A DNA stretch of 64,000 nucleotides, from positions 23,808,001 through 23,872,000 of the forward strand of contig NC_043001.1 in NCBI RefSeq assembly GCF_006345805.1, in the 5' to 3' direction. The position numbers and the translations under genes were made by a program. Numbering within the stretch: the first letter of the stretch is position 1; each line of letters starts with the position of its first letter. Below the pieces are notes generated by a model, which saw nothing but the letters and a program-made list of their open reading frames with translations, made no database searches and had not been told where the DNA came from. This DNA is from Octopus sinensis. Its lineage: Eukaryota. Positions 6,545-64,000 of the stretch are shown piece by piece.

Positions 6545-7211
6545 TATCTTGTAAATTTTGGGGGATTTTTCAAAAATACTTTTACTTTTGATAGGATATT
6601 GTGTTATCTTTTCTTTGCATGCAAACTGTCAAATTTATCCCAAACACTCTGTATCATATTGTTATACGACAAATAAACTATAAAGGATGGAAAGGAACGG
6701 CAACAAATATGATTATCCGTTGTACAAAACACCGCGCTCTTATTGTAATCTTTTAAGTGACAATCTTGAATGAATTCGCGTGGACGAAAATCAAAACTAG
6801 CATTGTACTGTAGCCGAAAGACAAATATATGAAACAATAGATTTCTACCACAATGACCAAAGGCAAGTAAGAAGCTCGTGTACATATTGTAATATATAAA
6901 TACTAATGAACCGGTAGCGATGGAATAAAACCTAATGTCACTCTTAGACCGACATAGGTTTTTTTTAGCAACGTTAACGGATATATGTATATACAAACAT
7001 TCACTTACACATACATACATACATACTACATACATACATACATACATACATACATACACACACATATATGTATACATATACATCTGTTTGTATATACATA
7101 TATTCATCCATCCATCCATCCATCCATCCATTTTTATATATGTGACTGCGTGTGTATCGTTGGCGAATTTCTTTCTCCGTCTTCCTTTCCTTGGACCTTT
7201 CCTTTTCCTAT

Positions 7212-7247
7212 GTTTCTGACGAAGAGCTCCGCTCGAAACGTTAAATC
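7212..7247 (+). ncRNA. minimal type I hammerhead ribozyme motif in a short TA-flanked element (about 7148-7344)
   Basis: gttt-CTGACGA-a-gagc(tcc)gctc-GAAA-cgtt-aaatc: intact core, 4-bp stem II, palindromic AACGTT stem III, weak stem I. Confidence 0.6.
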
Positions 7248-7367
7248 TTCCTTCTTTCTTTCCTTTCCTGAGCGTCCAATAACACTATACTTGTTCCACG
7301 CCTTCGCGTTGTTGTGTTTTCTCTTTATTCATGTTTGGAGTAACTATATATATATATATATATATAT

Positions 7368-8375
7368 TGTTACGAACCACCCGCCGTCGCTCAAACTCTT
7401 CGGAAAAACCCGGGACCCTACCAAGTCGAGCGACGACGAGCGACCGGCTCGATCGAACGGTGAATTCGCCACGGACTCAGAGAGAGAGAATTCGGCGGGG
7501 AGAAGGCGGCAACGAACACGGCAACCGGCGACCGGAGATAACACAACAACAAACAACAGCAAGAAGAGACACAGAGAGAGACGGCGGAAGGCAATTGGCT
7601 ACATTTAACAACAGTAGTTTATAACAATTATTACATCAAATACATCAAAGAAAATACGTGCAAGAAAACAAGGAAACAACAAATCAAAGCATGCAGATAC
7701 ATTTCAGAGACAACAGTTCAAATCACTTAAACGTTCACTTATAGTTCAGAGACAAATCAGTTCTAGTTCATTAACGATACAGTTCAAAGTTCTTTAAAGT
7801 CTTTCTCTTTCTTTGCTTTCCGCAATTCTGTAACACAGTACTTTTCAACAACTCTTTTCACAATGTCTTTACACAATTCAGTACTTCTCCCTCCTTTTTT
7901 CAACACATCAATTCTTTTACATTTCAACAATTCTTTTTCCTTCTTTAACACATATCAAAACATAAATAAACATACCGTTACGAGCTACTACAATGGCCAG
8001 TGCCCTCATACCGTAGTCCCTCTCTCTTAGCTCCGTAATCCTATCTGCCTGTCTTCCTCTTTCACATTCACTGTCATTCTCTCGATTGTCATCCCTCACA
8101 TTTTCTGTCTGTTTTTCTCAACTGACCGCCTTCGTATCTCTCCCGTCTCTGGCCAGAACTGCGGGCCGACTGGCAAACTCACCAACGCGTCGCGTTTTTA
8201 AAGGGGTGGTTTCTCGACCTTTCCTTGACCGGCACAAGGCCAAAGGTCTCCTCAAAACTCATTAATCCTTCCAGGATCTGACGGAACAAAGGACAATAAC
8301 TTTGTATTCCAGACTTTCAGACTACAACGAGCAAAGTAGGTCATAGCATTTGTTTCCCGAATTGACCCCCATAAC
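7368..8375. mobile_element. probable solo LTR
   Basis: About 1-kb CpG-rich block with sharp edges inside (TA)n. Ends are tgtta...taac (short terminal IR; the final A of CA is missing). Confidence 0.45.
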
Positions 8376-8456
<81 letters not shown>

Positions 8457-8696
8457 ATATATCTTATATATATATATATATATATATCTATAAATGTATG
8501 TATGTACACACACACACATACGCATATATGATTTGATTTGATTTGATCTAGTTTCAGCTCATGAACTGTGACCATGCTGGGGCATTGGCATTTGTTGTTG
8601 CTACACAATTTTACTTTCCTAATTCTTTTTAAAAATTGACATTTGGTGCATGAGGGGGTTTGATGCCGCTGCCCTCATGATATATATATATATATG

Positions 8697-8917
8697 TTTT
8701 ATTGTGTCTGGGGAGAGTCATTCTGTTTTAATGCCTTATTAATTAATTAATCAATCGCGATTCGATTTAATTGCGAATAAACGACCATTGAAGAGGTTGC
8801 AAGAAGCAACGAAAATTTTAGAAAAAAATAAACAAGTAAATGAGTAGTAATTGAACCGGTGAGTGTTTTAATTAATAAGGCATTAAAACAGAATGACTCT
8901 CGCCAGACACAATAAAA
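8697..8917. repeat. 50-bp inverted repeat enclosing an HHR-like core
   Basis: Arms 8697-8746 and 8868-8917 with 1 mismatch. The spacer has TTGAAGA-g-gttgc(aagaa)gcaac-GAAA at 8788-8814. Confidence 0.8.
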
Positions 8918-8990
8918 TATGCTTCAACACATGACTTCACATAAAGAATCTTGTAAACCAAATACAAACGAAATATGTATGTATATATGT

Positions 8991-9081
<91 letters not shown>

Positions 9082-9559
9082 ATGTGTGTGTGTGTGTATT
9101 TTCCAGATTAGTGCGATCATCTCTCGGAAAAAAAGACGTTACTTTTTCTTGTTTTTCTTTAATTCATTATCTTAAGAACTATATCTTCCAACTTGCTCAC
9201 GCTTCTCTATCTCTCTCATTCACCATCTATCTATATCTTCCAGCTTGCTGACGTTGTTCACGTAACCGCTACTAACCTCCACCTGATCAACAAAACTGAT
9301 TGTACTGCAAGGATGTCTTTTTAGGCATCCCACCCCATCATCAAACAAAAAGCCAGGTCGCTCTCGAGTATTATTAATTGATCTTGTTCGCTACTGGTAA
9401 CATGTAACCCAGTACAACTTGCTACATGGTCGGGTCGTCGGCGACTAAATTGGCAACCCTACCGAGCTTGCTTGATGAGGAGCGTGATAGGACATCCTGC
9501 AGGACGAAAAATAAAACTGTGCTAGAATGAAAGAGGCATCAAACTTGACACCAAAGTGG

Positions 9560-10170
9560 ATACCCTATAGGCGACACATTAACCAACTAGCTATCGTCCA
9601 CAAAGACTGTCTAAGGACATTCACTGCGGTTATTCACTAAAAGACAAAGTTTCTAATGCCAACTTGTTTAGCAAGTGTAAGATTGGTGGAATTGAGAGCC
9701 TCCTTATATAATCATAATTGCGCTGGGCTGGCTATGTCATCAGAATGAGTGACGAAAGAATACCCAAAGTCTTCATGTACCGCCAGCTTGAGGGTGGGCA
9801 CAGTAATGTTGATCGTCCATAGCTCAGATATAAGGACAAGCTGAAGAGTAACTTCTTAGAAATGAAGATCACTCACAACACCTTTGAGCGAACAACCTTG
9901 GAACGGACAAAATGGAGATCATTATGTCAAAATGGTATTAAAAACTGTTGCAACTAGAATTAACAGGTTTCGGAGTGCAAAGGAAAGGAAAAAAGTGATT
10001 GAAAATATACCACATGCACTGACCTGTAATCCTCATACTTGTAACATCTGTGGCTTTCTTTGCAAATCTTTGGCAGGTCTTAAATGTCACATTCGACATA
10101 AGCATTATGACTGACAAAGAAAGAGTATGTTGTCGGAGCCTCATACGTCGAAACAGACGGGAGAGTCCAT
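9560..10170 (+). pseudogene. RTE-clade LINE 3' fragment
   Basis: LRWAGYVIRMSDERIPKVFMY..RP*LRYKDKLK and terminal CNICGFLCKSLAGLKCHIRHKH zinc finger; stops and frameshifts. Confidence 0.85.
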
Positions 10171-10179
10171 CATATATAT

Positions 10180-10698
10180 ATTTCTTTACTGCCCACAAGG
10201 GGCTAAACATAGAGGGGATAAACAAGGACAGACAAAGGGATTAAGTCGATTATATCGAACCCAGTGCGTAACTGGTACTTCATTTATCGACCCCGAAAGG
10301 ATGAAAGGCAAAGTCGACCTCGGCAGAATTTGAACTCAGAACGTAACGACAGACGAAATACCTATTTCTTTATTACCCACAAGGGGCTAAACACAGAGAG
10401 GACAAACAAGGACAGACATAGGTATTAAGTCGATTATATCGACCCCAGTGCGTAATTGGTACTTAATTTATCGACCCCGAAAGGATGAAAGGCAAAGTCG
10501 ACCTCGGCGGAATTTGAACTCACAATGTAACGCAGACGAATTACCGCTAAGCATTTCGCCCGGCGTGCTAACGTTTCTGCCAGCTCGCCTCCCGGCCTCG
10601 ACAGACCTCGGCGGAATTTGAACTCACAACGTAACGCAGACGAATTACTGCTAAGCATTTCGCCCGGCACGCTAACGTTTCTGCCAGCTCGCCGCCTT
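10180..10698 (-). mobile_element. SINE family A multimer with TSD
   Basis: Duplicated head and body. 16-bp TSD agtccatcatatatat at 10164-10179 and 10699-10714. Confidence 0.9.
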
Positions 10699-10960
10699 AG
10701 TCCATCATATATATGGTAAATGAAAGACGGAAGATGGAATATATGAGAATTTATTATTAATCACGACAATCGTTTCGACACATCTAGTAATATAGTTTGC
10801 ATGAAATATTGTCTGATGTATAAAAATGCTTTTAATTAATTTTTTATAACGACAAAACAATATAAGTTGTAAGAAATAAGACAGGTCGAAGGGTTTTTTT
10901 TCGATGTATTGTGTCTTACAACTTCAAATTTTTGGGGTTTATGAAACAATGATTAAAACA

Positions 10961-11029
<69 letters not shown>

Positions 11030-12356: not shown

Positions 12357-12537
12357 CGTGCGTATTTATTCTTGATACTTTCCGGCAGATTCGAATGCAA
12401 ATACGCTAATCTCTGCCGTGTAAGTCACAGGAGAACAGCTTCTTGTTTATGTTATGATCACATAGTCGGTGTACGCGATGGAGATTAGCATATTTGCGTT
12501 CGAACCTACCGGAACGTATTAAGAACAAATACGCATG
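12357..12537. repeat. degenerate inverted repeat (MITE-like)
   Basis: Arms 12357-12413 and 12481-12537, about 8 mismatches, mostly transitions. Confidence 0.7.
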
Positions 12538-12829: not shown

Positions 12830-12888
<59 letters not shown>

Positions 12889-13311: not shown

Positions 13312-13346
<35 letters not shown>

Positions 13347-13420: not shown

Positions 13421-13622
13421 AAACGGGAAGCTTTATGAAAATAAACAAAAGACGAAGGCAGGTGGAATACAAACAAACAATTGTATAGTATGGCGCTCAG
13501 GAATATAAATAAAACAGTCTTTTTGTTTCGAGCCTACGCTCTTCAACGAAAGATACACAGAAAAGAAACACAGAGAGAAACAAGGAGAGAAAAAAATGCG
13601 TGCAGAAGCTAGCGAATCAACA
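13421..13622 (-). mobile_element. short TA-embedded element related to 7148-7344, with a degenerate HHR
   Basis: Minus strand has gaagagc(gtag)gctcgaaac (13525-13544), ttcctgagcg and ttccac blocks shared with the 7.2-kb element. Confidence 0.55.
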
Positions 13623-14534: not shown

Positions 14535-14619
<85 letters not shown>

Positions 14620-15194: not shown

Positions 15195-15264
<70 letters not shown>

Positions 15265-15481
15265 CTTCGAAACACGCAATGAGTCGAAACAGGGGCAGCT
15301 GAAGAAGGGGAATGTTCCCTCTGTTGTTTGTTTTGTTTCTATATTTTCGTTTCTCGTTGCGTTCTACTTTTATTTGTGGTGTCCTGTACTCATATATGCA
15401 TGTATATATACATATAGATGTAGGTTTGTACATATATGTATGTATGCATATGTTTTATTTATTAAATTGTTATTATATATA

Positions 15482-16744: not shown

Positions 16745-16778
<34 letters not shown>

Positions 16779-16837
16779 ACATTATTGGTGAATTGAAGAA
16801 ATGGAGCTGAACGCAGATTGAACAGAAATCGTTTTAT

Positions 16838-16923
16838 TTCATTCTACACGTGTTTCGAAAGGCACAAATTACCAAAATCCGATTGAATAATGGACCATAT
16901 TGTGTCTTTCTCTTCAGGAAGAA
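16838..16923 (-). ncRNA. mirror copy of the hammerhead motif in the left palindrome arm
   Basis: Reverse complement of 17103-17189. Confidence 0.72.
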
Positions 16924-17102
16924 AAAAGGAAATCCGTTGGAAAAACAAAAACAGAACAGAGGCAGAGCAAAAAACAAATCGAACTGTGCTCCTAAGAGCC
17001 CATGGCGAAACTCAGTTTCGCCATGGGCTCTTAGGAGCACAGTTCGATTTGTTTTTTGCTCTGCCTCTGTTCTGTTTTTGTTTTTCCAACGGATTTCCTT
17101 TT

Positions 17103-17189
17103 TTCTTCCTGAAGAGAAAGACACAATATGGTCCCATTATTCAATCGGATTTTGGTAATTTGTGCCTTTCGAAACACGTGTAGAATGAA
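17103..17189 (+). ncRNA. type I hammerhead ribozyme motif (extended stem II)
   Basis: ttcttc-CTGAAGA-gaaagacacaa...ttgtgcctttc-GAAAC(acgt)GTA-gaatgaa: intact core, 10/11-bp stem II, palindromic stem III, predicted cleavage after A17182. Confidence 0.75.
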
Positions 17190-18329
17190 ATAAAACGATT
17201 TCTGTTCAATCTGCGTTCAGCTCCATTTCTTCAATTCACCAATAATGTTTTAATTTCAATTATCCGCACCAACGCACGGCTGCAACGCCAGATGGTTGTA
17301 CCTCCAACCGTGCTGTTCACTGCTGTGATTTTTGCTACTAAGGTATCGGTTAAACTTTTGATTAATCTACTACAAGATTATTCATCTTTCTATTTCACAA
17401 AATTATATATATATATATACATATACATATATACGACGGGCTTTTTTCAGTTTCCGTCGACCAAATTCACTCAAAAGGCTTTGCTCGACCCGAGGCTATA
17501 GTAGAAGATAATTGCCCAAGGTGCCACGCAGTGGGACTGAACCCGGAACCATGTGGTTAAACAAGCTACTTATCACACAGCCACTCCTGCGCCTATATAT
17601 ATTTACATATTTATGGGTAATCTAAGGATTTACATATTTATGGATAATCTAAGGAAAGAAAAAGAAAAAAGTAAAAAGTTAAGAAAACAGTTTTATGATT
17701 ATTCAAGAAGGAAGTTTATTTCTTCTCTAATGACATAAGTGAAGTGAAATAATTAAACTGGAGAACTGAAACTGGATAACTGACAGAAAGTCGCCCCTTG
17801 CTCTGAATTACACTCTGTTATAGTTTCGGTGTATTGGTAAACGATAGTTCAGTTTGGTAATTGTATACTGTACTTGCAAGCACCCAGAACAAATAATAAT
17901 GATTTTTCTTTGTATAAGACGATAAAATTACGAGGAAAGGGTACAGTGAATTGAATCGATACCAGTATATTTTTACTAACTATTTCACTGATATTTGAGG
18001 ATGAATGTCAACGTCGGTTTCGACAGGATTTCAAATGAGAAACGTAACGGAAACTTATCTCTGGTGCTTTTAAGTTTCTGCTTCCCACACAAAAATACAT
18101 ATTTAAAAAAAATGAATTATAAGGGTGTCAAATCAACCTGCTAGGAATGACAATGAAATGTCTATTGAATTACAATCAATTGCCTTAAGTAAAGGTCATA
18201 TTGGGCATTATAACCACTGATGTAAAAAAAAAAAAGACAGAAAATCTTTCATCATAGGTTTGCTGGATTAGAGCTAGCCTGGGTTAAACAGGAAAAATCG
18301 GATTATTTAGTTCCTAATGGTAGACAGTG

Positions 18330-26176: not shown

Positions 26177-26588
26177 TCACACGCACATACACACATTTAC
26201 ACACACAGACGCACATTTGACAACCAGATATAAACAAAAACAAGCAGGTAAAATAATTTTAACAGTAACAACAAAAGTGTTTTAACATTTCTTATTTATG
26301 TTTTTACTAAAGAATTTTTTTTTATAGTAAAGTGATAAAAAATTCGATTACTTTCAGTAATGAACATTTGATAAGCTGAATCTATTGCTAAAGAAAATTA
26401 TTAAGGCTTTCAAAATATCATAAAAATACTGATTTCTTACATAAGCAATTTACTGATTTCTTTCATAGGGAATTTTTAGACGATTATGTCGAGCACAGCA
26501 ATTGATTTTTATCGAATCAGGAGGCTGAAAACTAAAGATGACATCGATGGGATTTGAACAATGGATGTAAACAGACGTAACTAAATAC

Positions 26589-27000
26589 TTATTTCTTTAT
26601 TACCCACAAGGGGCTAAATATAGAGGGGACAAACAAGGACAGACATAGGTATTAAGTCGATTACATCTACCCCAGTGCGTAGCTGGTACTTAATTTATCG
26701 ACCCCGAAAGGATGAAAAGCAAAGTCGACCTCGGCGGAATTTGAACTCACAACGTAACGGTAGACGAAATACCTATTTCTTTACTACCCACAAGGGGCTA
26801 AACACAGTGAGGACAAACAAGGACAGACAAACGGATTAAGTTGATTATATCGACCCCAGTGCGTAACTGGTACTTAATTTATCGACCCCGAAAGGATGAA
26901 AAGCAAAGTCGACCTCGGTGGAATTTGAACTCAGAACGTAACGGCAGGCGAAATACCACTAAGCATTTCGCCCGGCGTGCTAACGTTTCTGCCTGCTCGC
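26589..27000 (-). mobile_element. SINE family A dimer
   Basis: Two tandem bodies behind one head. Confidence 0.85.
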
Positions 27001-28712: not shown

Positions 28713-28919
28713 CAGTTAATATCGCGCATGGTCGACATTGGCTTCCGTCCTTTCAGAGTGGATCAAATAAGTAGTCGCTGATTATCGTCTTGCTTAAATC
28801 GATTACATCCTAACCTTTGCCAAGTTTATAACATTGAGGCGATGTATATAATCAATGATAGTTATTGATATTTTTTGCTTTCTATGTCTGGAGGTAGGAA
28901 CAGTGCCAAAGACATTTAC

Positions 28920-29140
28920 AAGCACCTCCAGGATCGATGAGCTTGACGCTGTTAATACCCCGCTGAAATTGTTACAAGCCAACACCTGCAGCGAAAACAT
29001 GAGCATGGAGATGATTCCAGAAGGTCGATATACTGGGGAGAAAGGACTGGATCTCGTGGCTAGTGTGAGATCGGGGAAAATGGACGAAATAAGGCTGCCT
29101 GAGGGGAAGAGGTACAAAACCAGCCAAGTGTTGGAAATAA
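28920..29140 (+). pseudogene. possible very degenerate Dong/R4-type RT fragment
   Basis: CSENMSME...EIRLPEGKRYK loosely resembles FSxDIGMEFG...GIxLPDG..YK. Weak. Confidence 0.3.
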
Positions 29141-31057
29141 TAGAAAATTTACTTTACATTGCTTATGACAGCTCCTCATTTAAGGTGATGACAGCGTATA
29201 CAAGAATTTCCCTTGAAGATACCTGCATAAAGTTTAAGACGGCAAGCAATTGGAAGATCGCAGCTACAAGAAGACAATGAAATGAAATTTCAAGCTAACA
29301 TGTTAAAGTAAAATGGCAAAGAAAAAATAATTTGGTTTCCGTGGTGGGAATTCCTTCGATAGATAATTTTAAAAGTGAATTTTAACGTTAGCTACATAGT
29401 TTGCAGAAAATCAAGTATGGCTGCATCTTGTGTAACTTCTATTCGAGGTAGTTGTTTAGAGAAAGAAAATGATAAGAGCGGTAGTAGGAGGCCACCTAGG
29501 TGGGTTCTCCTCGCACCCATGAGGAAACCGATATTACTGATAATACCGCTAAAAATAGGAACACTCATATCATGAATGACAGCGACGCATCTACAATAGC
29601 AGAAGCGATTGCAGCAGAAACAACAACAGCAGTAATAAGAGCATCAACAACGACTGCGACAGTAACAACAACAAGACCACTAAAGTTACTAATACTGCTT
29701 CTGATAATAGAAGCCGCAATAGTGATAGAGGTTAAGGATGTAGCAGATATTATTGTGATACTGTCAGATGAATTAGCCGTAGTCGCAGCGGTAGTGGAAG
29801 CAAACACGACAATAACAACATCAACAAGATCAGATATAAAACCGCGCATCAAGTAACTAAGCAGAAAATAACAGAAATGGTAAACATTTGTGTGCAATTA
29901 TAAACCACAAGCAGCAAACTGTATTTCTAAATAATTAGCAGCATCAACAAGTCTGACAATGCCCACATCACACCAACCATCTCAGGAATAACTTTCAGTA
30001 ATTGATCCATTTGTTTTTTTCGACAACGTGGAAATCCACTTTTGTAAATCAGTCATCAAATCCCACAAACTGTAATATTTATACCTTTTCTCCTTAAATT
30101 AGAGATTCTCGACTCTATTTTTTGCTTATGACTCCCTTTTGAATCCAAATGACCTCTGAAGTACCCTTTACAGATATAAAGGGTACTTTTATCTCTCACT
30201 TGATTCAGGCATTGAACTGCAGCTTTGCTGAGGCACTGCCTTGAAGGATTTTAGCCGAACAGATCGACCCCTGGATATAATTTTTTTTCTAAAGTCTGGT
30301 ACTATTTTATCATTCTTTTGCCGAATCACTGAGTGACAGAAACGTAAACAAACTAACATTGGTTATCAAGCGGTGGTGGAGGTGACAAAACACAGACAGA
30401 AAGACACGCGCAAACGCACACATGTATGTACATACAACGGGATTCCGCAGTTTCCGTTTGTCAAATTCACTCACAAGGCACGGGTTGACTCGAAGATATA
30501 GTAAAAGACACTTGCCCTAAGTTGTGACGCAGTAGGACTTAATCAGAAGCCACACAGTTACAAAGCGAGCTTCTTAACAACATAGCCTTTCTTGCATCTA
30601 CAGAGCTATGCCTATGTTTGTTAATCTCATCTGTATCATATGAAAGCAAATTTAATGTAGTAGCTTACACAGATGACTATATTTTTGCAGATAAAATTGT
30701 GTATTAGCAAAGTTCAATTACGACAGAAAGCGATAAGCACTATCTCAAATTTATATGTACTTTAGTTACCAAACAAAATTCCCAGATACATAAAATATTT
30801 ACTAACAAAATATGTTTGATACTTTATTCAGTGTGTCTTGAGGCCGTCGCAAACTTTCTCGATTTTCAATATTTGGTTGCAAAGCGAGTCAAAAGTTTTG
30901 CAATGTTGCATACGTGCTAGTTTACGGCGTGTATAACATGTGACCAAGGCAATTCAAGCCGTGGATGGTATCCGCTGAGGTTGTTAGTATAACGGTAGTT
31001 GGTTCGCTGACACGCTTTGCATTGCTTCACATCATATGTGATTGAAAAGCCGCCAAG

Positions 31058-31802
31058 ATGAACGTGCAACTTACGCTTTACGAGTTCGAACTGAGCCATA
31101 ACGCCGCGGAAGCAACTAAAAGCATTTGTTTTGCGAAAGGTGCAATTGGTCACAGCACAGGAACCAAATGTTTCAAGAAATGTCACTCGGTTTGTAAGAA
31201 CTTCTTCTTCTTACAGCATTCACCCGGGGTGGGTTGAGCTGGCTTCATTCATCCTCAATGCTACATCTCTCACAAACGCCGACCAGGCCTGGCGATTTGA
31301 GGCTAACGACCGCGTGATCTCCAACCACTCCTTATTCCAGCGTCGAACGCCGTAGATATGGGGGCCTAGGTTGGGTTCCAGATCAGCCTCTGGACAACGA
31401 AAAACCTGGCTGATGACAGTTAAGGTTTGTAAGAACCTCAACGATCAAACAAGATCAGGTAGGACTAAAACCGTGGATTCCGAGGTCGTGCTCCAAGTTA
31501 TAGAGGCAAATCTGGTGAGTAGTTCGAACGACCCGGAATAAGCGCCAGGAACTTGAAGGAAAGGAACTGATGTCACACCCAGCTATAGTCTAAATTTAGT
31601 TCCCTCGAATTGTTACTTGTTCCGGTCAATGACTCACTTCCTGTGCTCGAAACACTTCATCAGCCAAGAAGAAGTGAAAACTTCAGTGAAGGAGCTCTTC
31701 TCCTCGAAGGACAAGAACTGGTATCAGCATGGGATAACAAAAAAACTGACAGAAAGGTGGCCTCAGATGGTGAAACACAATGGCCTTTGCTTTGAATGCT
31801 AG
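31058..31802 (+). pseudogene. internally deleted mariner transposase
   Basis: LYEFELSHNAAEATKSIC..RSGRTKTVD at the N-terminus. YS.NLVPSNCYLFRSMTHFL..SSKDKNWYQHGI..ERWPQMVKHNG at the C-terminus. Confidence 0.85.
31202..31423 (-). mobile_element. 5'-truncated RTE-type LINE end inserted in the mariner
   Basis: RRWNKEWLEITRSLASNRQAWSAFVRDV, (GAA)n tail, 13-bp TSD ggtttgtaagaac at 31189-31201 and 31424-31436. Confidence 0.8.
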
Positions 31803-34442: not shown

Positions 34443-35901
34443 TCTATATACTACTAAAACTGTCTGATTGCTTGCTTATCTGTCTTTTAACACAGCCAAA
34501 CAGGCGCATAATGCGGAAATACTGTGTATTAAGGTTCCCCTGAAATGTGAATACAAATGGAATAAAACAAATTTCGCGTAAATCGGACGACTGGTTTTTG
34601 AGATATGGGGAGCTTTTGGGAGTATAAATACCCAAAACGGTGCATAATGGGAAAATACTCCGAAAATAACATAACCCCGAAAGGGAAAAAACTCTAAACC
34701 TTCGATTATAACATTATGATGGACAAAAGTCATAGCGACTTTAACTTGTCAACTAAAAAACACGAGTTGTTTTTACAGTAAATGTTTCTATTTTGGCTTT
34801 CGTTAAACACAATATTTTAATTATTTAGAAATATTTTTAAGTGAATGTGATTTCAAAAATTTAAGGTGTTTGTACAGTAAGTATTTATATTTTAGCTTTC
34901 TTTACACAGGCAATATTTTAGTTTTTTAAAAAATTATTTTTAAGTGAATACCATTTCAAAAATTCTTTCTGGCATATTTAAAAAATATTTTAAGGTGAAA
35001 ATGACTTTAAAAATATGGTAAATATTTTGTAAAGGACCCGTTCGTAACCTCGGGGTAAAATAATATTTTTCCTCGGGTTTTTTCGAGTGCATTCAATGTA
35101 TCTCACCTCCAAAGACTTGGATGTTATTTCTTGCACGCATTGCTACCACCTAACAGCTATTTGCGATAAAAGACCTGAAATAACTTTTAAGTAGTAGCAG
35201 AGTGTGCAAGAAATAGCAGCCAAATCTTTCCTTTTTTGGGGGAAAGAAGCCGTTTACGCATGATTTCGATGTCACATTCGTTGAAAGCATGCGAAATAAC
35301 CTGAAAAGAAGAAAAAAAACCCACGAAAAAAAATTCCATTAGTGGGAAACTCGGAGTTTCCCGGGAAACTTCGAGATCCCCTCCACCCCTCCACCCTTTC
35401 TTTTCCGGGAGAAAGTGGCTTGCGGTGGGTTTAGAGGTGAGATACGTTGAATGCACTCGAAAAAACCTGTGGAAAAAATTATTTCACACTGAATTACGAA
35501 CTGGTTCTTTACGTAATATTTACCCTAGATCAGGATAGATATGTGAATAGAAGGATAGATGAGACTGATAAAGCAAGGGCTGAGCATCTGGCGGAACAGA
35601 GGGACAGAGACAAAAGCAGGAGATATCGCGAATCGGATGCTCATGTGAATACAAACGGATAAAACAAGTTTCGCGTAAATGAGACCACGAGTTACCGAAA
35701 TACGCGTTCTTTTCGGGTACCTTTTTAAATAATCGAATCGGTATATAATGGGGAAATGCTTAGAAAGTAAGGTACCATTGAAATGTGAATACAAACGGAA
35801 TAACAGAAGTTTCGCGTAAATCAGACCACGGATTCCCGAGATATGCGGTTTTTTCGGGTACCTTGAACTATTGGTGACCCAGCGGGTCACGGGTAGTCTA
35901 G
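34443..35901 (+). mobile_element. non-autonomous Helitron
   Basis: A|TC 5' end; 3' hairpin gtgaccc(agc)gggtcac followed by CTAG|T. An internal atgtgaatacaaa..tttcgcgtaaat module occurs three times. Confidence 0.7.
35017..35524. mobile_element. MITE with about 90-bp TIRs inside the Helitron
   Basis: ggtaaatatt...ttcgagtgcattcaatgtatctcacctc versus gaggtgagatacgttgaatgcactcgaa...aatatttacc. Confidence 0.7.
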
Positions 35902-38867: not shown

Positions 38868-39043
38868 AACAATTGCAGCGTTGAAGGTGTTTATAAGCCA
38901 TTTAAGAAACACACAAAATCCATTAGATTCACTTCAACATTTAAATTTAATTTGTCAAAATATTTTCGTCGCTTTGAAGTGAATCTGACGGATTTTCTGT
39001 GTTTCTTAAATGGCTTATAAACACCTTCCGCGCTGCAATTGTT
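38868..39043. repeat. 70-bp fold-back inverted repeat
   Basis: Arms 38868-38937 and 38974-39043 with a few mismatches. Confidence 0.85.
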
Positions 39044-41246: not shown

Positions 41247-41663
41247 AAGGCGGCGAGCTGGCAGAAACGTTAGCGCGCCGGGCGAAATGCTTGGCGGTAT
41301 TTCGTCTGCCGTTACGTTCTGAGTTCAAATTCTGCCGAGGTCCACTTTGCCTTTCATCCTTTCGGGGTCGATAAATTAAGTGCCAGTTACGCACTGGGGT
41401 CGATATAATCGACTTAATCCCTTTGTCTGTCCTTGTTCGACCCCTCTATGTTTAGTCCCTTGTGGGCAATAAAGAAGTAGGTATTTCGTCTGCCGTTTAC
41501 GTTCTGAGTTCAAATTCCGCCGAGGTCGACTTTACCTTTCATCATTTCGGGGTCGATAAATTAAGGACCAGTTACGCACTGGGGTCGATATAATCGACTT
41601 AATCCCTTTGTCTGTCCTTGTTTGTCCCCTCCGTGTTTAGCCCCTTGTGGGCAATAAAAAAAT
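41247..41663 (+). mobile_element. SINE family A dimer with TSD
   Basis: About 20-bp TSD aagtatcaatatctcttaca. Confidence 0.9.
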
Positions 41664-42350
41664 AAGTATCAATATCTCTTACAGTAGCCACACCACATCG
41701 CAGGTGAGAGTAACAATTTCCGATAATGTATCCACACTCAAACAGAAAACAAACATTGTTTTCGAATATCAGCCACCAAAAATAACTTATGGAGAAGAGG
41801 AATAAAAAGCGTAAAATACATATCTTCAAACATAAGCTGTAATCGCAGATTTCTATCTATGCGAGATGCAAGAAAAGCGGATGAAAAATCCACATCTTCA
41901 AAAGCCTTAATCTGAAAAATTTCAAGCGTACAACTAAAATATTTTGAGCTCGAAGGAGTTATTGTACTCACTAATATCTACAACGCTGCCTAAATCCCCA
42001 TTATTAGGAAAGTGGTAACATTTATCGCAATTCTGAAGCATCCTTATAAAAAACAACACAAAAACAGCAAAACAAAAAAAAACAAAAAACAAGAGAAATG
42101 ATATCACACAGATCCACAAACTTCGTATACACATCTTTAAACATTTTGGGGAAAAGTTCTCGATACCTATTCATACCTTATGCATTCCAATCTTCAAATC
42201 ATAACATGGACTCGGGCACTACACTAAACCATTGTACAACTCACAAAACTCGCACAAAATACCATGACGGTTTCAACGGTATAAACTACGATGTGTTAGG
42301 AGAGGCAATTATAACTGCAATTTTAGTATATCGTTACTATAAATCTGTGA

Positions 42351-47619: not shown

Positions 47620-47900
47620 TCGACGATGAAAGATAAAAAAGAAAATGAATGGATGGAGAAATGCCAGCAACTAAAAAACTAAATAGGGAGGTTTTGTAGA
47701 TATGAAGAAAGTAAATGTGGTACCAGTAGTAATTGGAGCTTTGGGAACAGTCTGTAAGAGGTTGGAAAAGCACATCGAGAATATTGGAGTTACTATCACG
47801 TTTGAAGAGATTCAGAAAACATTGTTATTAGGTACAACTCATATCCTAAGGAAAGTCTTGTCTCTTTATGAGGCAGGAGAAAGCCTTACTTGAAACTTTA
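47620..47900 (+). pseudogene. Dong/R4-like RLE non-LTR retrotransposon C-terminal fragment
   Basis: MKKVNVVPVVIGALGTVCKRLEKHIENIG..IQKTLLLGTTHILRKVL, directly after a (TAA)n tract. Confidence 0.8.
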
Positions 47901-48413: not shown

Positions 48414-48622
48414 ATACATGTGCATATTTAGCGATAACCACAAGGTGGATAACCAATATGCTAGAAGAAGATCAGATACGATCTAACTACAAAGAAAAAG
48501 AAAAGATTGTTCTCTAGAGAAATTCAGTAGAACATTCTTTTCTTTGTAGTTAGATCGTATGTGATCTTCTTCTAGCATATTGGTTATCCACCTAGTGGTT
48601 ATCCCTAAATAAACACATGTAT
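48414..48622. repeat. about 100-bp fold-back inverted repeat in a TA-flanked insertion
   Basis: Arms 48414-48513 and 48529-48622; the insertion runs to about 48728 between (TA)n tracts. Confidence 0.85.
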
Positions 48623-48726
48623 TGAAATGTTTTCTGATTTTTCTGATTTTTTATATAGGCTAGGCTACTGGTTTTAAATTGAGATTAATTAAATTAATAT
48701 GCAATTTATCTCCCTCGCTATTTAAA

Positions 48727-48785
<59 letters not shown>

Positions 48786-50532
48786 ACGATGATGGTGAAT
48801 ATCCGAATTGCTACACCTCCAGACAACATGAAAATAGAATCTTCATAGGAGCCATAGAGACAACATTCTTTTGTAAGTGTGTAACCTGAACCTTCACCAG
48901 GTACATAACCAACACAATCGATGTGCGTTTCATCAGGATGGGCTGAATGGACGTCAACGTCAGTTAGATACACAAAGTAATCAACAAGAAGCTTTATGCT
49001 GACTTATCTCAGTTGATTAGCAAAATAGCAGGAAGACGATCACAGCTTGTCGAGGTTGAGACATCCCAGAGTGGCCGGTCAACCAAATCCTCATTTGTGA
49101 ACCGACTCACTGGACAATGACCCGTGGATATTCTCCAGAATCGTGGTCAAGAGTCTGAAGGAGAACAGTGCAGTGGACTTGAGGTGCTGGTGATGGAATG
49201 GGATGTGTGACGAGTCCATTGGTGTATTCGATACAAGTGCAGTTTGAAATCTCTAGATGTTGACAATGACGTTGTTCCAAACTTCATGTCTGGATTCGTT
49301 TGCATACATTCAAAGACGATAAAAAGACAAACAATAAGAATAAAACCATTATATTATTTCCTTCCGCATTTCTAAAAATTGTAATCAGGATCCATAAATT
49401 GAGTTTTATTATCTATTTCAGTATGATCATTATAATGTGAATTCCAAGTGTCAATGATCTATGCACCAAACTAAGTATATTTCATCTAAAAATAACACCG
49501 AATATTTTTTAGTTGTCATCGTGGCATCTCATTTGATTCTGACAATAGCGGGAGTTAAGGAAATATTTTCTTTTGGCGTAGAAATGTAGATACAGTGTTG
49601 TAAAAGTCCATATTTTTATAGAACATTTGCTATTTTGATGTATTATGATGTGTTTTGACTTGATTCCAACAGTCTGAAGCTGCAATTATTCACTTAAACT
49701 GTATTTAACGCTAGATTATATCAAATAACACACCAGCTTTTCTGTTACTTCAGAACGGTTCCAGATATCACAAGGTTACACTAGGGAGCAATGCAGCAGT
49801 CATTTTACAACACAAATTAATTCCCGGTTTCCCCGCTGAGTGATATGACATTGTTTTCACATAGCTTTTTTCCTTTGTTATTTTCTCTCCCAAAGAGTTT
49901 ATATTTGACAACATTCCAATTTCATTGATGTCAAGAAAACTAAATTGGTAAATTGGTGCAGTAGATATCTTGTAACCAATTGGAAAACAATTAAAGGTTT
50001 TAGCGAACGGTCGTAACGTATGACCAAAGTTTTCATTTACGACCGAAGTTATTTTCCCTTCACAGATACTATTAACATTTCGGGTAAAAGATAGGATATC
50101 ATAAATTCGCATTTACTTTTCTTTATATAAAAGAAAACAATCTGGTGTAACTAATTTTTTCTTCTTTAGTGCCGAACCAGTCTACAGAACATAGTACGAT
50201 AGAGTCGGTTATCAACGTTTTCGTAAACGGAGATATCTATTAACAGGTTATTAGCCATTTTGACTGTGAGAGAACAGAAAACGGGATTTGTAACATTCAC
50301 ACACACTTTTCTTAATGCATTCGCCGGTTAAGTAAAAGGAAATAGATATACATTTCGATAGTGAATTGCAGACTTTAGTTGTTGGGAGATTGCCTTTCAC
50401 TTTATAGCAGTGTTTCTCAAGGTGCAGCTCGCGGGGATTTGGGTTACTTCAGGAAAAAGCGTAAGTAAATAAATGGATAAAACTTGCTATAAAATTTAAG
50501 CTAAAACTATATTTGATATACTACATACGGAG

Positions 50533-53101: not shown

Positions 53102-54042
53102 TATATATGTATATGTATATGTATAGATATGTATATGTATAGATATGTATATATATATGTATATAATATATATATGTAATACATATATATATGTATGTAT
53201 ATATATGTAAATACGAGCATACATTCGTACACATGCATATACCCTCAAATTCATATATGGACGCCTACACAGAAGGTGGTAATATATTTTCTATACACCT
53301 TAGTCTATTTATAGATTGCTGTAGGTGGTCTGGATTCACAGACTTCAGTATTTTTATAGCTTTATGAAATCGTAATTGTTAAAACGACACTTTTATTTTA
53401 ACTATTTCCTTAATTGTAGTTTCAGGTGCGACAATTATCAGCTTGTCTAGTGCGTGAGCGCACACACGCACACACACACACGCGCGCGCGCACGCACGGA
53501 CACGCACTCGTACACTCGCACATACACACACATGCATATGTCTTCACAGAAATTTCTTTAACTGTATGTGTATCTTGTTCTTATTTACGATATTTATCTC
53601 TTCCATATTTTATTTTCATGGACGTCACATCTTCCGTCTTCTTTCCACAAAGTATCAGCTGTCGGTATATATGATTCTCGTCTTACCATATACATTGAAT
53701 ATATATACATACGTAGATGTAGACGTGTGTATGTGTGTGTGTGTGTTGTGTGTGTGTGTGAGTGTGTGTGTATTATATGTATATATTTATATATGTATAG
53801 ATATGTATGCTTGTATTTATATATATATGTATATACAAACATGCATACATACACACACACACACACATATATATATATGTATGTATATAAATATATATAT
53901 ATATAAATATATATATATGTATATAAATATATATATATATATATGTATATAAATATATATAATGGCGGTGCCCCAGCATGGCCACAGCTCATGAGCTGAA
54001 ACTAAAAAATCAAAAAAAAAAATATGTATATATATATGTATA

Positions 54043-54705: not shown

Positions 54706-54984
54706 GTATATGTAATAAGCAGTGAAGTGTAGAAATAGAATTTTGTTACCAGTTCAAATATGTATTCGAACCCGTAAGAAAACCATTCACTGTATTTTGT
54801 CATGGAGAAAATTTCTTGCTGTAGATAAATAGGTGTAAACATACCAAGTCAGTTGAAAGGTGTCCCTACCTAGATTTATGGCTGCATGCATTTCGGAGTA
54901 GTTATCTCCTCTTCGGCATAAAACAACACTACACACGTGTGAATATGTATGTCACTGGTTGGAAATTGTCGTACACATTACGTC

Positions 54985-55256
54985 TAATTCAGAAGCAAGC
55001 TCTCGAACAGTTGTGCATGGATTGGCTTCGACTAAGGCTTTTAGTTGATCGTTGTCAACATACGATGGCCGACCACTACGCCTATCATCTTCAAGACTCT
55101 CGTCACCGCTACGAAATTTCTTGAATCACCATTGTGCTGTACGTTCATTAGTGGTTCCTGGGCCAAATGCATCGTTGATATCGTGAGCTGTTTCAGCAGT
55201 TTTCGGCTTAGCTTGAGCTCGAATAAGAAAATTGTGCGAGTCTGCTTTTTGTCCAT
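54985..55256 (-). pseudogene. Hsmar1/cecropia-like mariner N-terminal remnant
   Basis: MDKKQTRTIFLFELKLSRK, then a frameshift, then INDAFGPGTTNERTAQWWFKKFRSGDESLEDD..SGRPS.VDNDQLKALVEANP. Confidence 0.85.
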
Positions 55257-55541: not shown

Positions 55542-55580
<39 letters not shown>

Positions 55581-55583
<3 letters not shown>

Positions 55584-55939
55584 TTTACATTATTTACATT
55601 TGACGTATATTTGTCCTCATCTTTGTTGTTAATACAACGTTTCGGCTGATATACCCTCCAGCCTTCAGCAGGTGTCTTGGAGAAATTTCGAACCTGCGTT
55701 CTCATTCCTAAGGTATTCTCCGATGTTATTATTATTATTATTATTATTATCAAAATTCAGGTCACCGCTTGGAATCGAACTCGGAATCTTGGGGTTAGTA
55801 GCCCGCGCTCTTAACCACTACGCCATATGCCCACGGGCATATGGCGTATCAACAAACAAGGTGAGGACAAATATCCGTCAAATGCAAATGTAAATAACGT
55901 AAATAATGTAAATAATTCCTCATCTCTTAAATGTAGAAC
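55581..55939 (-). mobile_element. tRNA-headed element with HHR-like motif and head-to-head inverted partial copy
   Basis: tRNA-like head 55760-55832 (A-box tggcgtagtgg, B-box gagttcgattcc). HHR-like gacac-CTGCTGA-a-ggctg..cagcc-GAAACGTT-gtatt at 55631-55676. Palindrome 55819-55848. Confidence 0.7.
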
Positions 55940-58665: not shown

Positions 58666-58711
58666 TTCCCACTTCTTTCCAAACGCTACATCTTCATATA
58701 TTCATATATAT

Positions 58712-59084: not shown

Positions 59085-59085
59085 C

Positions 59086-59117
<32 letters not shown>

Positions 59118-59129
59118 TGTATGTATATA

Positions 59130-60122
59130 CTACCTGAATGACTCGGCGTTGCCAGGATGTTCTCATTCAGATTAGTAAACAATAAATATAAAGATATTTT
59201 CTCATAATTATTTCAAAATATCTATATTCTATTAAAAAATATCCAAATTGTAATGGTTATAGAATTTCGAACATAGAGTTGGCCGTGAGAGAAGCATGTA
59301 TTAGAGAGATCAAGTCCAACTATCTTGAGAGATTAACCCTGAGATATGTTAATTGAAATACCAAAATTTAGTTTGATTGGAAACTGAAGCGTCTTAAATT
59401 CAAATGGAACATCTGTAGATATGAGTGGAATTTTTGGAATAAAGAAATTTTCTCCTTTGTGACTACCTGTTATGATTGTTGCCTGTAGGACATGGGCTTT
59501 CATGGAAGTAACAATTAAGGGAATTCCATTACGCAGGTGAGGTTCCTAAGCAGCATAACGAGAGCACCCAGTTTTAGTGTCAAATTATGCAGTGGCATCC
59601 CAGAGGGTTTGAGTGTGTTCAGAAATTCAACAGGGTATTGAACAACCTGATCTTGATTGACTGTTGTCAGTTAATCGAAAAGTCATTTCTGATGTATCTT
59701 TTAATTTCTGAAGAAGTTCATGATTGAATTTATCAACCATTTTAGTCGTTGGAGCCAGTGTAGCTCTTTCACCTGGCCAGTTTATATGGCCAGGTGAAAG
59801 AGCTACATTAGATAAATTAGGAAATACTTTATCCATTAGATCCTTAAGAGAAAGTATCAATTGATCGCGTGTAATTTCATGTAACTGAAGTCGTGAGTTG
59901 AATTTTTTCTTTTTTTCTTTTTCTTTTACTTGTTTCAGTCATTTAACTGCGGCCATGCTGGAGCACCACCTTTAGTCGAGCAAATCGACCCCGGGACTTA
60001 TTCTTTGTAAGCCAAGTACTTATTCTATCAGTCTCTTTTTGCCGAACCGCTAAGTGATGGGGACGTAAACACACCAGCATCGGTTGTCAAGCAATAATAG
60101 GGGGACAAACACAGACACACAA

Positions 60123-60175
<53 letters not shown>

Positions 60176-60800
60176 CATATATACGACGGGCTTCTTTCAG
60201 TTTACGTCTACCAAATCCACTCACAAGGCATTGGTCGATCCGGGGCTATAGCAGAAGACACTTGCCCAAGGTGCCACGCAGTGGGACTGAACCCGGAACG
60301 ATGTGGTTGGTTAGCAAGCTACTTACCACACAGCCACTCCTGCGCCTATCTTAATATTCAATTACCAATCTTAAGAAGCTCGTATGATCACCTTGTAGAA
60401 ATACTCTCATGCTGCTTGTAAAATGAAGCTTTTTTACAAGTCCCCGAAGGTACAGTTTTTGTAAGTATTCATTGACCTCATCAGCTTTTGATCCTTTGGG
60501 GATAACTGGCAACCTTTGACGAAAATCTCCTGCAAGAAGAACTGTTATTCCTCACATGAGCGTGCTATTGTTTTTTATGTCTTGGAGGGTACGGTCAAGT
60601 GCCGCTAGAGCACCACGATGTGATATAGTGCACTCATCCCAGACAACGAGGCAAGTTTGTTGGAGATCTGTTGCCATTGCAGAATCTTTGGAAATGTTGC
60701 ACATTTGAGATTCTTTCATTGTAAGGTTTAGAAGGAGCTTGAACATGGAATGAACAGTTCTTCCCCCAATGGTGAAAGTAGCTGCAACACCAGAAGATGC
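59130..60800 (-). pseudogene. Helitron Rep/Hel PIF1-helicase remnant with 3' end
   Basis: ASSGVAAT..GGRTVHSMFKL, VWDECTI, LDRTLQDI, LLAGDFRQRLPVIP, ERATLAP, YPVEFLNTL.PSGMP.H.L.LK.G..VMLLRN, QFPIKL, FSHGQLYV. Degenerate hairpin+CTAG end near 59130. Confidence 0.9.
59921..60347 (-). mobile_element. SINE family B inserted in the Helitron helicase
   Basis: Consensus match; interrupts the PIF1 motifs. Confidence 0.88.
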
Positions 60801-61624
60801 AACACACACACATACACACACACACAAACACACACACACATACACACACACACATACACACACACATACACACACAAACACAAACAAACATATATGTATG
60901 CATGTATGTATGCATGTGTGTATTATACACACATACATGTAGGAGGTTTGTACTGTATGTAATGCAAAAATTGGCATAACTTTCTTTACAAACACGGGTC
61001 GTTCAAATTGCATGTATTGGTAGATTAACTCTTTCTCTAGAGTAAATTTTCTTTTTTCTTTTCTATTGCAGGTGAATAATAGGTTCTAAGTAGAAGCAAC
61101 GATGCCATCATTGAATTCTTGACAAAATAAGGTTACAAGACGTTTCGCATCTACTTGAAGGCTCCAGATTGTTTCCAAAAGCAATGTGCAGAGATAGATG
61201 AAGTTTAAAGTAATAGAAACCAACATTGAAGACAAACTACACAATCATCATCATCATTGTTCGACCGTGGTCGAGACAATGGAATTGTAAATTCCATAGT
61301 CTTTTCAAATGGCTAATGTGTGCACGCGCCACTACTACACACATTGGAAAGCATTGTACAACCAAGTACTAAAGAAGATCTTTCCTCCTCCATGAAACAA
61401 AGCTGTTCCCGCCGGACGTCAACCCAGTATTTCTAAGCTACGGACCGAGTGATTTATTGTAAGGTTATCTCCCTAGATAGATTGCCTTCACTACGGCTAA
61501 GGAGCCCTTTCTACCCCACAATGGAAGACCATCAGCTGTGATCTCGCGGGCAGACCAGTCACAATCTGTGGGCTTGCTGCACAACTAGTCTCTGGTCACA
61601 AAACCTTACAGATGGCAGGTGAAG

Positions 61625-62306
61625 ATTTTCGGTATCAAAAAATGTGTGCAAATTGGGTGCCTCAGTGTTTGACACCCGATTTGAAGGAGGAAGTTTTGCT
61701 CACCTATTCAAATCTGTCGGTAGTGATTGAAGGTAACGAAGATATGTTTCTTTCCTACCTTATAGAGGATGAAAGACGGATGTATCTATATAATTCGGGA
61801 ACGAAAGCTCATTTGATGAAATGGTGTCAGACTTGTTCTCCAAGACATACAAGAAGTTCAAGAGACAGCAATCGGCACAGAAGCCATAATAACAAAGGCA
61901 TCATTCGTCTTGATTTTCGGGAAAATGACTATACCGTGATCAACGAGCGATACACTAAGAAACTTAAAAAAGCCATTAAGAAGAAGAGAACGAACAATAA
62001 CCTGTAAATCATTCACATCCATGACCACATTGTGTCGTCTATGGCAACAAATCAAGCAATCAGAAAATGTACTGGTCAGTGATCCGTTATACGCACATGC
62101 CGGATCTGGCGTCCTTCTACTCCCGTCTGTTCGGTTCAATAAAGGACAAATTTTGGGGGACAAATATTTGATGACACAAAAGAATTGAACGTGGTTGTGA
62201 AGAAGTAGGTGCAACAGTGCGCGCCTGAATTTTTCAAAGAGGATTCAAGAAGATGTTTCAATGATAGCAAAAATGCATCGCTTGAGGTGAAGACCATGTT
62301 GAATAG
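61625..62306 (+). pseudogene. mariner transposase remnant
   Basis: YQKMCANWVPQCLT, YLYNSGTK..MKW, a PDLAPS-like segment and a C-terminal EFF..KCI..GDHVE-like end. Confidence 0.8.
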
Positions 62307-63254
62307 TGCCTTTTTTATTGAAGAAGATTTACTCTACCACTATGTGCTATTTGAGCGGCCTTTGTCTCTTAAAAAGAAATATATTCCCACTTTTGCATTA
62401 CTTTCGGTATAACCTTTACGCATATGTGTGTGCTCGCGAGCGCATGTGTATGTGTGAGTGTTACAAGATCGCGTGTCTTATAAAATCGGCTTCGTGAATA
62501 CCTGTTGTAAAAGAAATAAAAAACAAACTAATCAGGTACAAATTTAATCTCTGGAATCTCCCGGTATAAAACTTGTTAGCAGAAGAATCAGAGACATCCA
62601 ATATTATAGAGAATATAAAAACGCAATTCAGTTTCAGAGCTGTTCGTGTTAGTACAATATTGCTATCCGCTTCCTCTTTATGCACTCCGTTTCTTGGAAC
62701 CCTGTCCCATATAACAGAACATTCAATAGATCATTCTGACCGTTCTTCTCAATCTACCTTGCTATAAATTCGTCTTATGAGCAGTCACAGTTTAGATCCA
62801 ATCAATAATAATATTGTGTTTCGTTAGTTTAGGTGCTGAGCTCAATTCTTCCGCTGATGTGACATGATGGTTAAATGGGTAAAGTACTGGACGGTCAGCC
62901 GGTTGTTATTTTGATTCTAATTTCATCGAAGGTATTTTACTGTGTATTTATTTAGTCAGTGCACGTAATTCTATATTTATCAGTTCTCTGGATGCACATC
63001 CATAACCATACGTGCATACATACATAAATACAAATGACATACAAGTGTATACGTGTATCAAACACACACACACAAACATACACGTATATGTATAAATATG
63101 TATGTACGTACGTACCTACGTTCGTACGTATGTATGTATGTATGAATGCATGCATGCATGTATGTATGTATGTATGTATGTATGTATGCATGCATGCGGA
63201 AAATTAATATAGACAGCAGTTTGAAATGTTTTACCAAAAACGTAAACTATATAA

Positions 63255-63963
63255 CGTAAGGGGTATTAGCCAGCTGAATGTGGCTAGCCACTGGGGGGGG
63301 GGTTACTGATGCTTTTAGCCCCAGGCGATCAACGTCACCAGAAGGACTTTAGACACTATCTCAGTGTCCTTGTGTTATTTGCAAAGGGAGGTCATCCTCC
63401 CTCGAAGACCCGAGTACTACATACGGACTATAGTTTCAAGGTAATTGCCTCTCGTCAACGCATGGTAAGCACCGGTCTTCGATGAAGGAGTCCCCTTGCA
63501 AATAATATATAATGTTTTTCACAGTAACCACTGTCACTGATGTAGAAAAACTGTCTGAAAACAATAATAAATCTCTGAACGAGATATAAACAGTAACCGC
63601 TCGACAACGTAAGGGGTATTAGCCATCTGAATGTGGCTAGCCACTGGGGGTGGGAGGTGGGGTGTTACTGATGCTTTTAGCCCCAGGCGATCAACGTCAC
63701 CAGAAGGACTTTAGACAGTATCTCAGTGTCCTTGTGTTATAGTCCGTATGTAGTACTCGGGTCTTCGAGGTAGGATGACCTCCCTTTGCAAATAACACAA
63801 GGACACTGAGATAGTGTCTAAAGTCCTTCTGGTGACGTTGATCGCCTGGGGCTAAAAGCATCAGTAACACCCCCCCCCCCAGTGGCTAGCCACATTCAGA
63901 TGGCTAATACCCCTTACGTTGTCGAGCGGTTACTGTTTATATCTCGTTCAGAGATCTATTATT
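63255..63963 (-). mobile_element. retrozyme/Penelope-like non-autonomous element: about 1.4 tandem 353-nt units plus an inverted segment
   Basis: Unit starts at 63253 and 63606. Inverted segment 63738-63963. Direct flank gtaaactatataa at 63242-63254 and 63964-63976. Confidence 0.85.
63421..63463 (-). ncRNA. type I hammerhead ribozyme motif
   Basis: atgcg-TTGACGA-gagg(caatta)cctt-GAAAC(tata)GTC-cgtat: all three stems pair, GUC triplet, U3 core variant, palindromic stem III. Confidence 0.75.
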
Positions 63964-64000
63964 GTAAACTATATAATTGTAACTAAATGTGACTAAGTTG

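Follow-up and report, generated by a model that had tools for sequence, protein, structure and literature searches.

Hammerhead motifs in the window

The 64,000-nucleotide stretch of contig NC_043001.1 analyzed here (positions 23,808,001 to 23,872,000; referred to as the window) is eukaryotic DNA, AT-rich and dense in repeats, with a GC content of 30 to 42% and 107 tandem-repeat rows. It contains a set of hammerhead ribozyme motifs and fold-backs that are probably scars left by Penelope-like elements (PLEs). An earlier sequence-only reading had proposed that several dissimilar hammerhead families land here, mostly in TA tracts, as parts of a high-copy retroelement system mobilized in trans. 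The loci under study are as follows.

7148..7343, plus strand: locus A (7.2 kb), a truncated element of about 195 nt with (TA)n at its end, identified by a descriptor match; TA tract 103 nt downstream
13421..13621, minus strand: locus B (13.5 kb), related to A but diverged, and flanked by a TA tract at either end (alignment z score, 8.2)
16775..17252, no strand assigned: locus C (17 kb), a 478-bp head-to-head palindrome with arms 99% identical and 1 nt between them
17253..17403, plus strand: 3' extension of C, on a single arm and up to (TA)n
55580..55918, minus strand: locus D (55.6 kb), with an RNA polymerase III (Pol III)/tRNA-like head, (AAT)n, a hammerhead, a 57-nt tail, and (TA)n
63253..63740, minus strand: locus E (63.4 kb), 1.38 head-to-tail copies of a 353-nt noncoding unit
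8694..8970, plus strand: locus F (8.8 kb), 53-bp inverted arms, one end longer, with TA-rich flanks on both sides
38868..39043, minus strand: locus G (38.9 kb), a fold-back with its junction just before a right-half motif resembling F (z score, 3.2)
48414..48728, plus strand: locus H (48.5 kb), a fold-back in which one arm runs on for 106 nt, with TA tracts on both sides

The descriptor used to scan both strands for type I hammerheads called for CUGANGA or UUGANAA as the core, with at most one mismatch, helix II of at least 4 bp, GAAAC, palindromic helix III, UH, and helix I of at least 2 bp. Five matches were found at four unrelated loci (7216+, 17109+, 16917-, 55671-, and 63458-), whereas 200 local dinucleotide shuffles averaged 0.045 matches and never gave more than 1, for a descriptor that was refined after the loci were already known. 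Motif density within the window was above that of shuffled sequence, a comparison that the sequence-only reading had proposed genome-wide. The exact core, with no mismatch, gave three matches versus none in 200 shuffles. A first, looser descriptor, run against 40 shuffles, gave three matches versus 0.0 and four versus 0.15; the figures became four versus 1.1 when the palindrome requirement was removed, four versus 1.3 with two core mismatches, and seven versus 2.5 without helix I, so that the excess drops as the descriptor loosens. A sixth motif, at 53348(-), needed the loosest setting to appear and was put down to chance.

The hammerhead in A (7216-7242) is a minimal type I motif with the core CUGACGA, an extra A, a 4-bp helix II, the helix III palindrome AACGTT, a 4-bp helix I, and the triplet GUU. 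C carries one intact hammerhead per arm (17109-17182 + and 16917-16845 -), with the core CUGAAGA, a long helix II, the palindrome ACACGTGT, and the triplet GUA. The hammerhead in D (55671-55636, minus strand) is minimal, with AACGTT in helix III and a 2-bp helix I; its core, CUGCUGA, has an A6C change, which is described as reducing activity in a natural hammerhead variant (PMC3088659). The type I hammerhead in E (63458-63426, minus strand) has the core UUGACGA, a 4-bp helix II, the palindrome ACTATAGT, and the triplet GUC; its core change is U3·G8. Intact cores are found only in A (7216+) and in the two arms of C (17109+ and 16917-). Helix III self-duplexes were predicted at -5.5 to -12.3 kcal/mol, values that any palindrome yields.

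Hammerhead families proposed at 7.2, 17.1, 55.6, and 63.4 kb thus stand above chance, with the palindromic stem III attributed to them, and the one at 13.5 kb does not: B is one base short of the 7-nt core, has lost helix III, and has no palindrome. The weaker hammerhead suggested at 8.8 kb (8788-8818; UUGAAGA, helix II of 5 bp, helix I of 1 bp) fails the type I descriptor and passes only a looser version without helix I. G has no core, and H has no hammerhead motif. Among the 36 pairwise alignments of nine candidate elements, only the 7.2/13.5-kb pair (z score, 8.2; score reached in 0 of 200 shuffles) and the 8.8/38.9-kb pair (z score, 3.2) stand out, and all other pairs are unrelated, in agreement with the claim of dissimilar families.

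Rfam reported no family at gathering score in the window. In E-value mode, no hammerhead was among the best 150 of 170 weak matches, and hairpins and microsatellites were matched to miRNA models; D or E searched alone gave nothing useful. An exact-pattern scan for B in prokaryote genome and viral contigs gave no matches, which is uninformative for an animal repeat.

Two stretches near these motifs were also noted. A short element that follows a TA tract at 15262-15390 has GAAAC twice ahead of CUGAAGA, plus a hairpin; it was rejected as a hammerhead because by eye its parts are scrambled and fit no type I layout and no clean type II one. Right after A, between two TA tracts, lies a noncoding stretch of about 1 kb (7368-8375) that starts with TGTTAC, ends with ATAAC, and by eye resembles a solo long terminal repeat (LTR); three minus-strand frames in it gave no meaningful Pfam match.

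Fold-back architecture and TA microsatellites

Fold-backs were located at 8.7-8.9, 16.8-17.3, 38.9, 48.4-48.6, 55.6-55.9, and 63.3-64.0 kb, and those at 38.9 and 48.5 kb that the sequence-only reading had added to its hammerhead loci were both recovered. Head-to-head inverted pairs are present in C, D, E, F, G, and H; A and B have no inverted copy. Wherever a hammerhead gives the orientation, the 3' ends point outward. One arm is longer than the other, giving a one-sided extension, in C, F, and H, and the arms of fold-backs other than C are 81 to 97% identical. Three fold-backs outside this set (12359-12535, 35014-35527, and 59759-59807) have no hammerhead match.

The flanks of C are the two halves of a common repeat that has 10 other copies in the window. 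These halves are 775 nt apart at C, versus 30 to 90 nt in nine of the 10 other copies and about 280 nt in one, which indicates that C inserted into a pre-existing CA/TA microsatellite. It would be extremely improbable for the perfect palindromes to be assembly or amplification artifacts. The 99% identity of the C arms and the single nucleotide between them make C the foremost candidate for such an origin, but the other fold-backs are less similar between arms, E is bounded by a target-site duplication (see below), and C splits its host repeat cleanly.

A TA tract lies within 250 nt downstream of four of the five hammerhead loci named in the sequence-only reading, versus 10.5% of positions (P = 5.5e-4), a figure that must be read knowing that the earlier reader may have chosen loci partly by TA proximity. 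For the descriptor loci the proportion is three of four (P = 0.004). The enrichment next to TA tracts that had been put forward for checking is therefore present within the window. In this one window (TA)n adjoins six of the eight loci; in A, C, and D the distance from the motif to the TA end is 57 to 222 nt. The proposed abutment and targeting of AT microsatellites accordingly apply to most loci and fail at 38.9 and 63.4 kb: G has no TA tract within 6.8 kb downstream, and E is 3.2 kb from the next one. Six of the 31 TA tracts adjoin copies of the abundant, hammerhead-free repeat that C splits, which counts against the generality of TA targeting.

Inverted arms, TA flanks, and the decayed mariner-like pieces in the window might instead suggest that the fold-backs are DNA transposons resembling miniature inverted-repeat transposable elements (MITEs) at TA, the hammerhead motifs being incidental. 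Such an origin may hold for H or G alone, neither of which has a full motif. As an account of the whole set it is very unlikely, however; the arms are unequal with a one-sided extension, E is partly tandem and bounded by a 13-bp duplication, and the motifs are above chance and face outward.

Locus D combines a tRNA-like head with a hammerhead

Two features within D are central to its interpretation.

55771..55825, minus strand: A box and B box, spacing 33 nt, consensus match
55846..55918, plus strand: inverted copy of the D tail, deleted and head-to-head, whose first base directly follows the predicted cleavage site

With the Pol III box consensus of PMC8969392, its first B-box base relaxed to R, the box pair in D is the sole match in the window, and none was found in 100 shuffles. 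ARAGORN predicted 0 tRNA genes in the window and Rfam found no tRNA in D; the boxes and their spacing alone point to a tRNA, and the head folds worse than shuffles. In the inverted arm, the first 14 nt of the head are joined to the tail via a 3-nt microhomology. The start of this arm at the predicted cut offers a hint of cleavage, weakened by the fact that it is a single junction and that those of C, E, and G fall elsewhere.

One copy with the same head, body, and tail is present in the window. An exact-pattern scan for D in prokaryote-dominated metagenome contigs gave no matches, which says little for an animal repeat, and a protein search for other copies with a spurious frame across D passed none of 190 candidates. 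D resembles the schistosome elements Sm-alpha and Sj-alpha in having a Pol III promoter followed by a hammerhead within a short noncoding repeat (PMC6765202, PMC2770079). Unlike them, it has a minimal PLE-type hammerhead, a head-to-head arrangement, and a (TA)n end, and it forms no tandem array. The excerpted text of the two schistosome papers does not name PLEs as the partner of Sm-alpha.

Locus E resembles a retrozyme

The tandem part of E is followed by an inverted copy, and the whole is enclosed by a target-site duplication.

63738..63965, plus strand: inverted E copy that begins 7 nt ahead of the cleavage site, with a 3-nt microhomology
63242..63254, plus strand: left copy of the 13-bp target-site duplication
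63964..63976, plus strand: right copy of the target-site duplication

Matches of at least 12 nt occurred in six of 1,500 random position pairs. An 8-nt match between the duplication and helix III of E was noticed after the fact. The E hammerhead closes a long hairpin (z score, -6.1) in which a 6-bp helix I is continued by a long extension (63381-63499), and the predicted circular fold has an energy of -117 kcal/mol (z score, -5.1 for a 352-nt version).

E is a multicopy family. Half or more of its sequence words were found in eight runs with five organism labels from six studies, and the source of the window may be among them. Contigs aligned to E numbered 1,862, 31, 1,120, and 183 in four runs, and two contigs in run X15 join the end of the unit to its start. 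The high copy number claimed for the system as a whole is thus borne out for the 63.4-kb family only. No RNA dataset was among the listed runs carrying E words, although run X1 may conceivably be RNA.

Variation among these contigs bears on the structure. Both bases of the pair G63477-C63407 vary to A-U, and two further variants nearby keep their pairs. A relative with a different palindromic helix III, ACCGGT, is represented by one contig each in X15 and X1. From the contig sequences, U3 may well be family-wide: none of the 40 of 57 variant rows listed shows C3, and two contigs in X16, which may be the source organism, have no differing letter at position 3. One A>G place each in X15 and X17 lies outside the 40 of 57 rows. 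The interval 63417-63468 has no variants among the rows listed; because other gaps of 35 to 48 nt exist and 40 of 57 rows are listed, this gap is not counted as selection.

Contigs leave the E unit at two points: at 63562 (52 contigs in X15 and 56 in X17) into mixed AT-rich flanks, and at 63595 (46 in X15 and 40 in X17) into common other sequence. The summed depth of the 34-nt piece between them (63562-63595) is about 10 times that of the E core, and the equivalent position is where the inverted E arm stops. These contig exits and depths suggest a 34-nt 3' module common to E and a more abundant family. Coverage is also deep over the left flank of E in three runs, which places E inside another repeat.

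Non-LTR retrozymes are described as tandem units of 150 to 450 bp (350 to 390 bp in mussel) with long target duplications and self-paired circles (PMC7229834), and a preprint derives vertebrate non-LTR retrozymes from the pseudo-LTRs (pLTRs) of PLEs (10.64898/2026.07.22.740005). E is like these animal elements in its unit size, tandem layout, noncoding nature, strong self-pairing, and multiple copies, as well as in the canonical sizes of helix I (6 bp) and helix II (4 bp). Its 13-bp target duplication likewise exceeds the 4 bp above which a duplication was taken as typical of non-LTR retrozymes. Unlike them, it has only 1.38 units and one hammerhead in the insertion, short of the two consecutive units, each with a complete hammerhead, that the 2026 preprint takes as the mark of activity, and it carries a PLE-type inverted copy; the word "inverted" occurs 0 times in PMC7229834. 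Its U3·G8 also differs from the C3-G8 and U3-A8 of the retrozyme cores reported in the excerpted literature.

Probable scars of Penelope-like elements

Several published traits of PLEs recur in the window. PLE hammerheads are described as having an extra base between A9 and G10.1, a G10.1-C11.1 pair, and a palindromic helix III, as cleaving weakly as dimers, and as forming many dissimilar families per genome, with opposite-strand pairs 100 to 700 bp apart; most minimal hammerheads are single motifs, probably within truncated PLEs (PMC4209133). PLE insertions include an inverted 5'-truncated copy, a tail of 30 to 40 bp on one end, and a bias toward (TA)n, which is shared by Naiads, elements without canonical hammerheads (PMC8557442). 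Target duplications of 8 to 10 bp, head-to-head palindromes, and trans-mobilization by pLTRs have also been reported (PMC3846280). The hammerheads in the window match those of PLE pLTRs in their type I layout, palindromic helix III, and dissimilar families (PMC4209133, PMC8557442, PMC3846280), and A and D have the extra base after A9. Opposite-strand pairs, an inverted 5'-truncated copy, one-sided extension, TA bias, and a long target duplication are further PLE-like features. Unlike endonuclease-positive (EN+) PLEs, the loci have no open reading frame, and they do not permit assignment to a clade.

Pfam was searched with 300 of the 420 stop-free frames of at least 55 amino acids in the window, 120 low-complexity frames being excluded. 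No match to a reverse transcriptase (RT) or GIY-YIG domain was found in these frames, in line with the earlier statement that the window has no intact RT gene. Because there is no PLE gene in the window, we infer the link to PLEs from architecture. A missing PLE reading frame is expected for truncated copies, and the loci are at most remnants.

We put at roughly 80% the probability that the motifs and fold-backs are PLE scars, comprising unrelated truncated 3' ends and two noncoding passengers (D and E), likely copied by PLE enzymes encoded elsewhere. The pattern is best read as ribozyme retroelements favoring TA microsatellites, a reading in line with what has been published on PLEs and not with a new system. 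In Octopus vulgaris, 190 PLE families account for 6.83% of the genome (PMC13282606), and several scars per 64 kb would be unremarkable if the host is related. The words "hammerhead" and "retrozyme" occur 0 times in the supplement file of that paper.

In such a scenario, the GIY-YIG endonuclease of a PLE would nick AT-rich DNA, and both target ends would prime reverse transcription at different points near the 3' end of the RNA. The two cDNAs would then join at a 3-nt microhomology, yielding a palindrome with unequal arms and tails outward. The hammerheads may cut a multimeric precursor RNA as dimers formed via the palindromic helix III. The copy at E is longer than one unit and spans the cleavage site, as would fit a circular or uncut multimeric template.

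Several observations weigh against an origin as PLE scars. The core is intact in only two of the five named loci, and the folds of A, C, and D are no better than shuffles (z scores, -0.4 to -1.1), with a helix I of 2 to 4 bp. G and E lie outside TA tracts. One-arm extensions of 106 to 150 nt contrast with PLE tails of 30 to 40 bp (PMC8557442), and in the frames searched none of the loci has a remnant of a PLE RT or endonuclease attached. Within E, changes at 63400 and 63486 break pairs of the helix I extension; five of six changes at 63490-63498, mostly in single X16 contigs, alone lose a predicted pair; the two-sided change at G63477-C63407 is not phased on one contig; and one relative has an imperfect helix III palindrome, with a loose end at 63433.

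The lack of a coding remnant at any locus, together with the noncoding units of D and E, would also suit a single class of nonautonomous ribozyme retroelement moved in trans, with no truncated autonomous PLE among the loci. This is unlikely, because most minimal hammerheads occur singly, probably in truncated PLEs (PMC4209133), and A, B, C, F, G, and H are 3' ends of 200 to 400 nt with no visible head. Trans mobilization, as the sequence-only reading proposed it for all loci, follows by construction only at 55.6 and 63.4 kb, where the whole unit is noncoding. The remaining loci look like 3' ends with 5' truncation, such as are left in cis by an autonomous PLE.

The window-level pattern is thus real and largely known biology, with known PLE traits in one more genome; D and E go beyond truncated PLE ends. 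A literature search, with most subscription journals outside its reach, found no description of hammerhead-bearing PLEs, retrozymes, or short interspersed nuclear elements (SINEs) of octopus. A giant squid paper gives 235 hammerhead-1 matches with no detail in the excerpted part. Co-occurrence and pLTR similarity have led to the proposal that PLEs mobilize retrozymes (PMC7229834; 2026 preprint). E unites a tandem unit, an inversion, and a target duplication in a single scar, and its 34-nt module may trace the partner. D, if it represents a family, would extend SINE partnerships from long interspersed nuclear elements (LINEs) to PLEs. It is conceivable, though less likely than not, that the lineage hosts PLE-driven SINEs, of which D would be a cleavage fossil placed head-to-head in (TA)n, alongside a circle-copied retrozyme family, E, whose fixed U3·G8 and 34-nt 3' module, common to a partner about 10 times more abundant, would point to the mobilizer. 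Should the host be an octopus, as its commonest short repeats may suggest, PLE scars that fold on themselves could be a source of its abundant double-stranded RNA, which has been tied to high A-to-I editing; the excerpted text on this subject in PMC5625713 names lizard Penelope and frog Harbinger and not octopus PLEs.

Other features of the window

The notable Pfam matches among the frames searched are pieces of other mobile elements, namely, one PIF1 helicase piece and two transposase helix-turn-helix (HTH) pieces.

60354-61085, minus strand: PIF1-like helicase fragment, split by a microsatellite (Pfam E value, 1.2e-9), probably a Helitron remnant
31046-31234, plus strand, and 54955-55125, minus strand: Mariner/Tc1-like transposase remnants (weak Pfam HTH matches)

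Further Mariner/Tc1-like remnants were recognized by eye at about 3.7-3.9, 43.1, and 61.5-62.0 kb. Decayed pieces at 9600-10110 and 47620-47870, both on the plus strand, resemble by eye C-terminal parts of RTE-type and R4/Dong-type LINE proteins; they have no Pfam match, and the latter comes after TAC/TAA repeats. An abundant short repeat forms head-to-tail dimers and trimers of 184 to 185 bp (1993-2544, 10179-10545, 26583-26957, and 41296-41669) with no match to the type I hammerhead descriptor. Two plus-strand frames have no Pfam match: a stop-containing frame at 48782-49321 that reads as a decayed coding piece and a 142-amino-acid frame at 28852-29277. The ESM Atlas features of the latter resemble restriction-endonuclease-like clusters (score, 0.93), which is a lead only.

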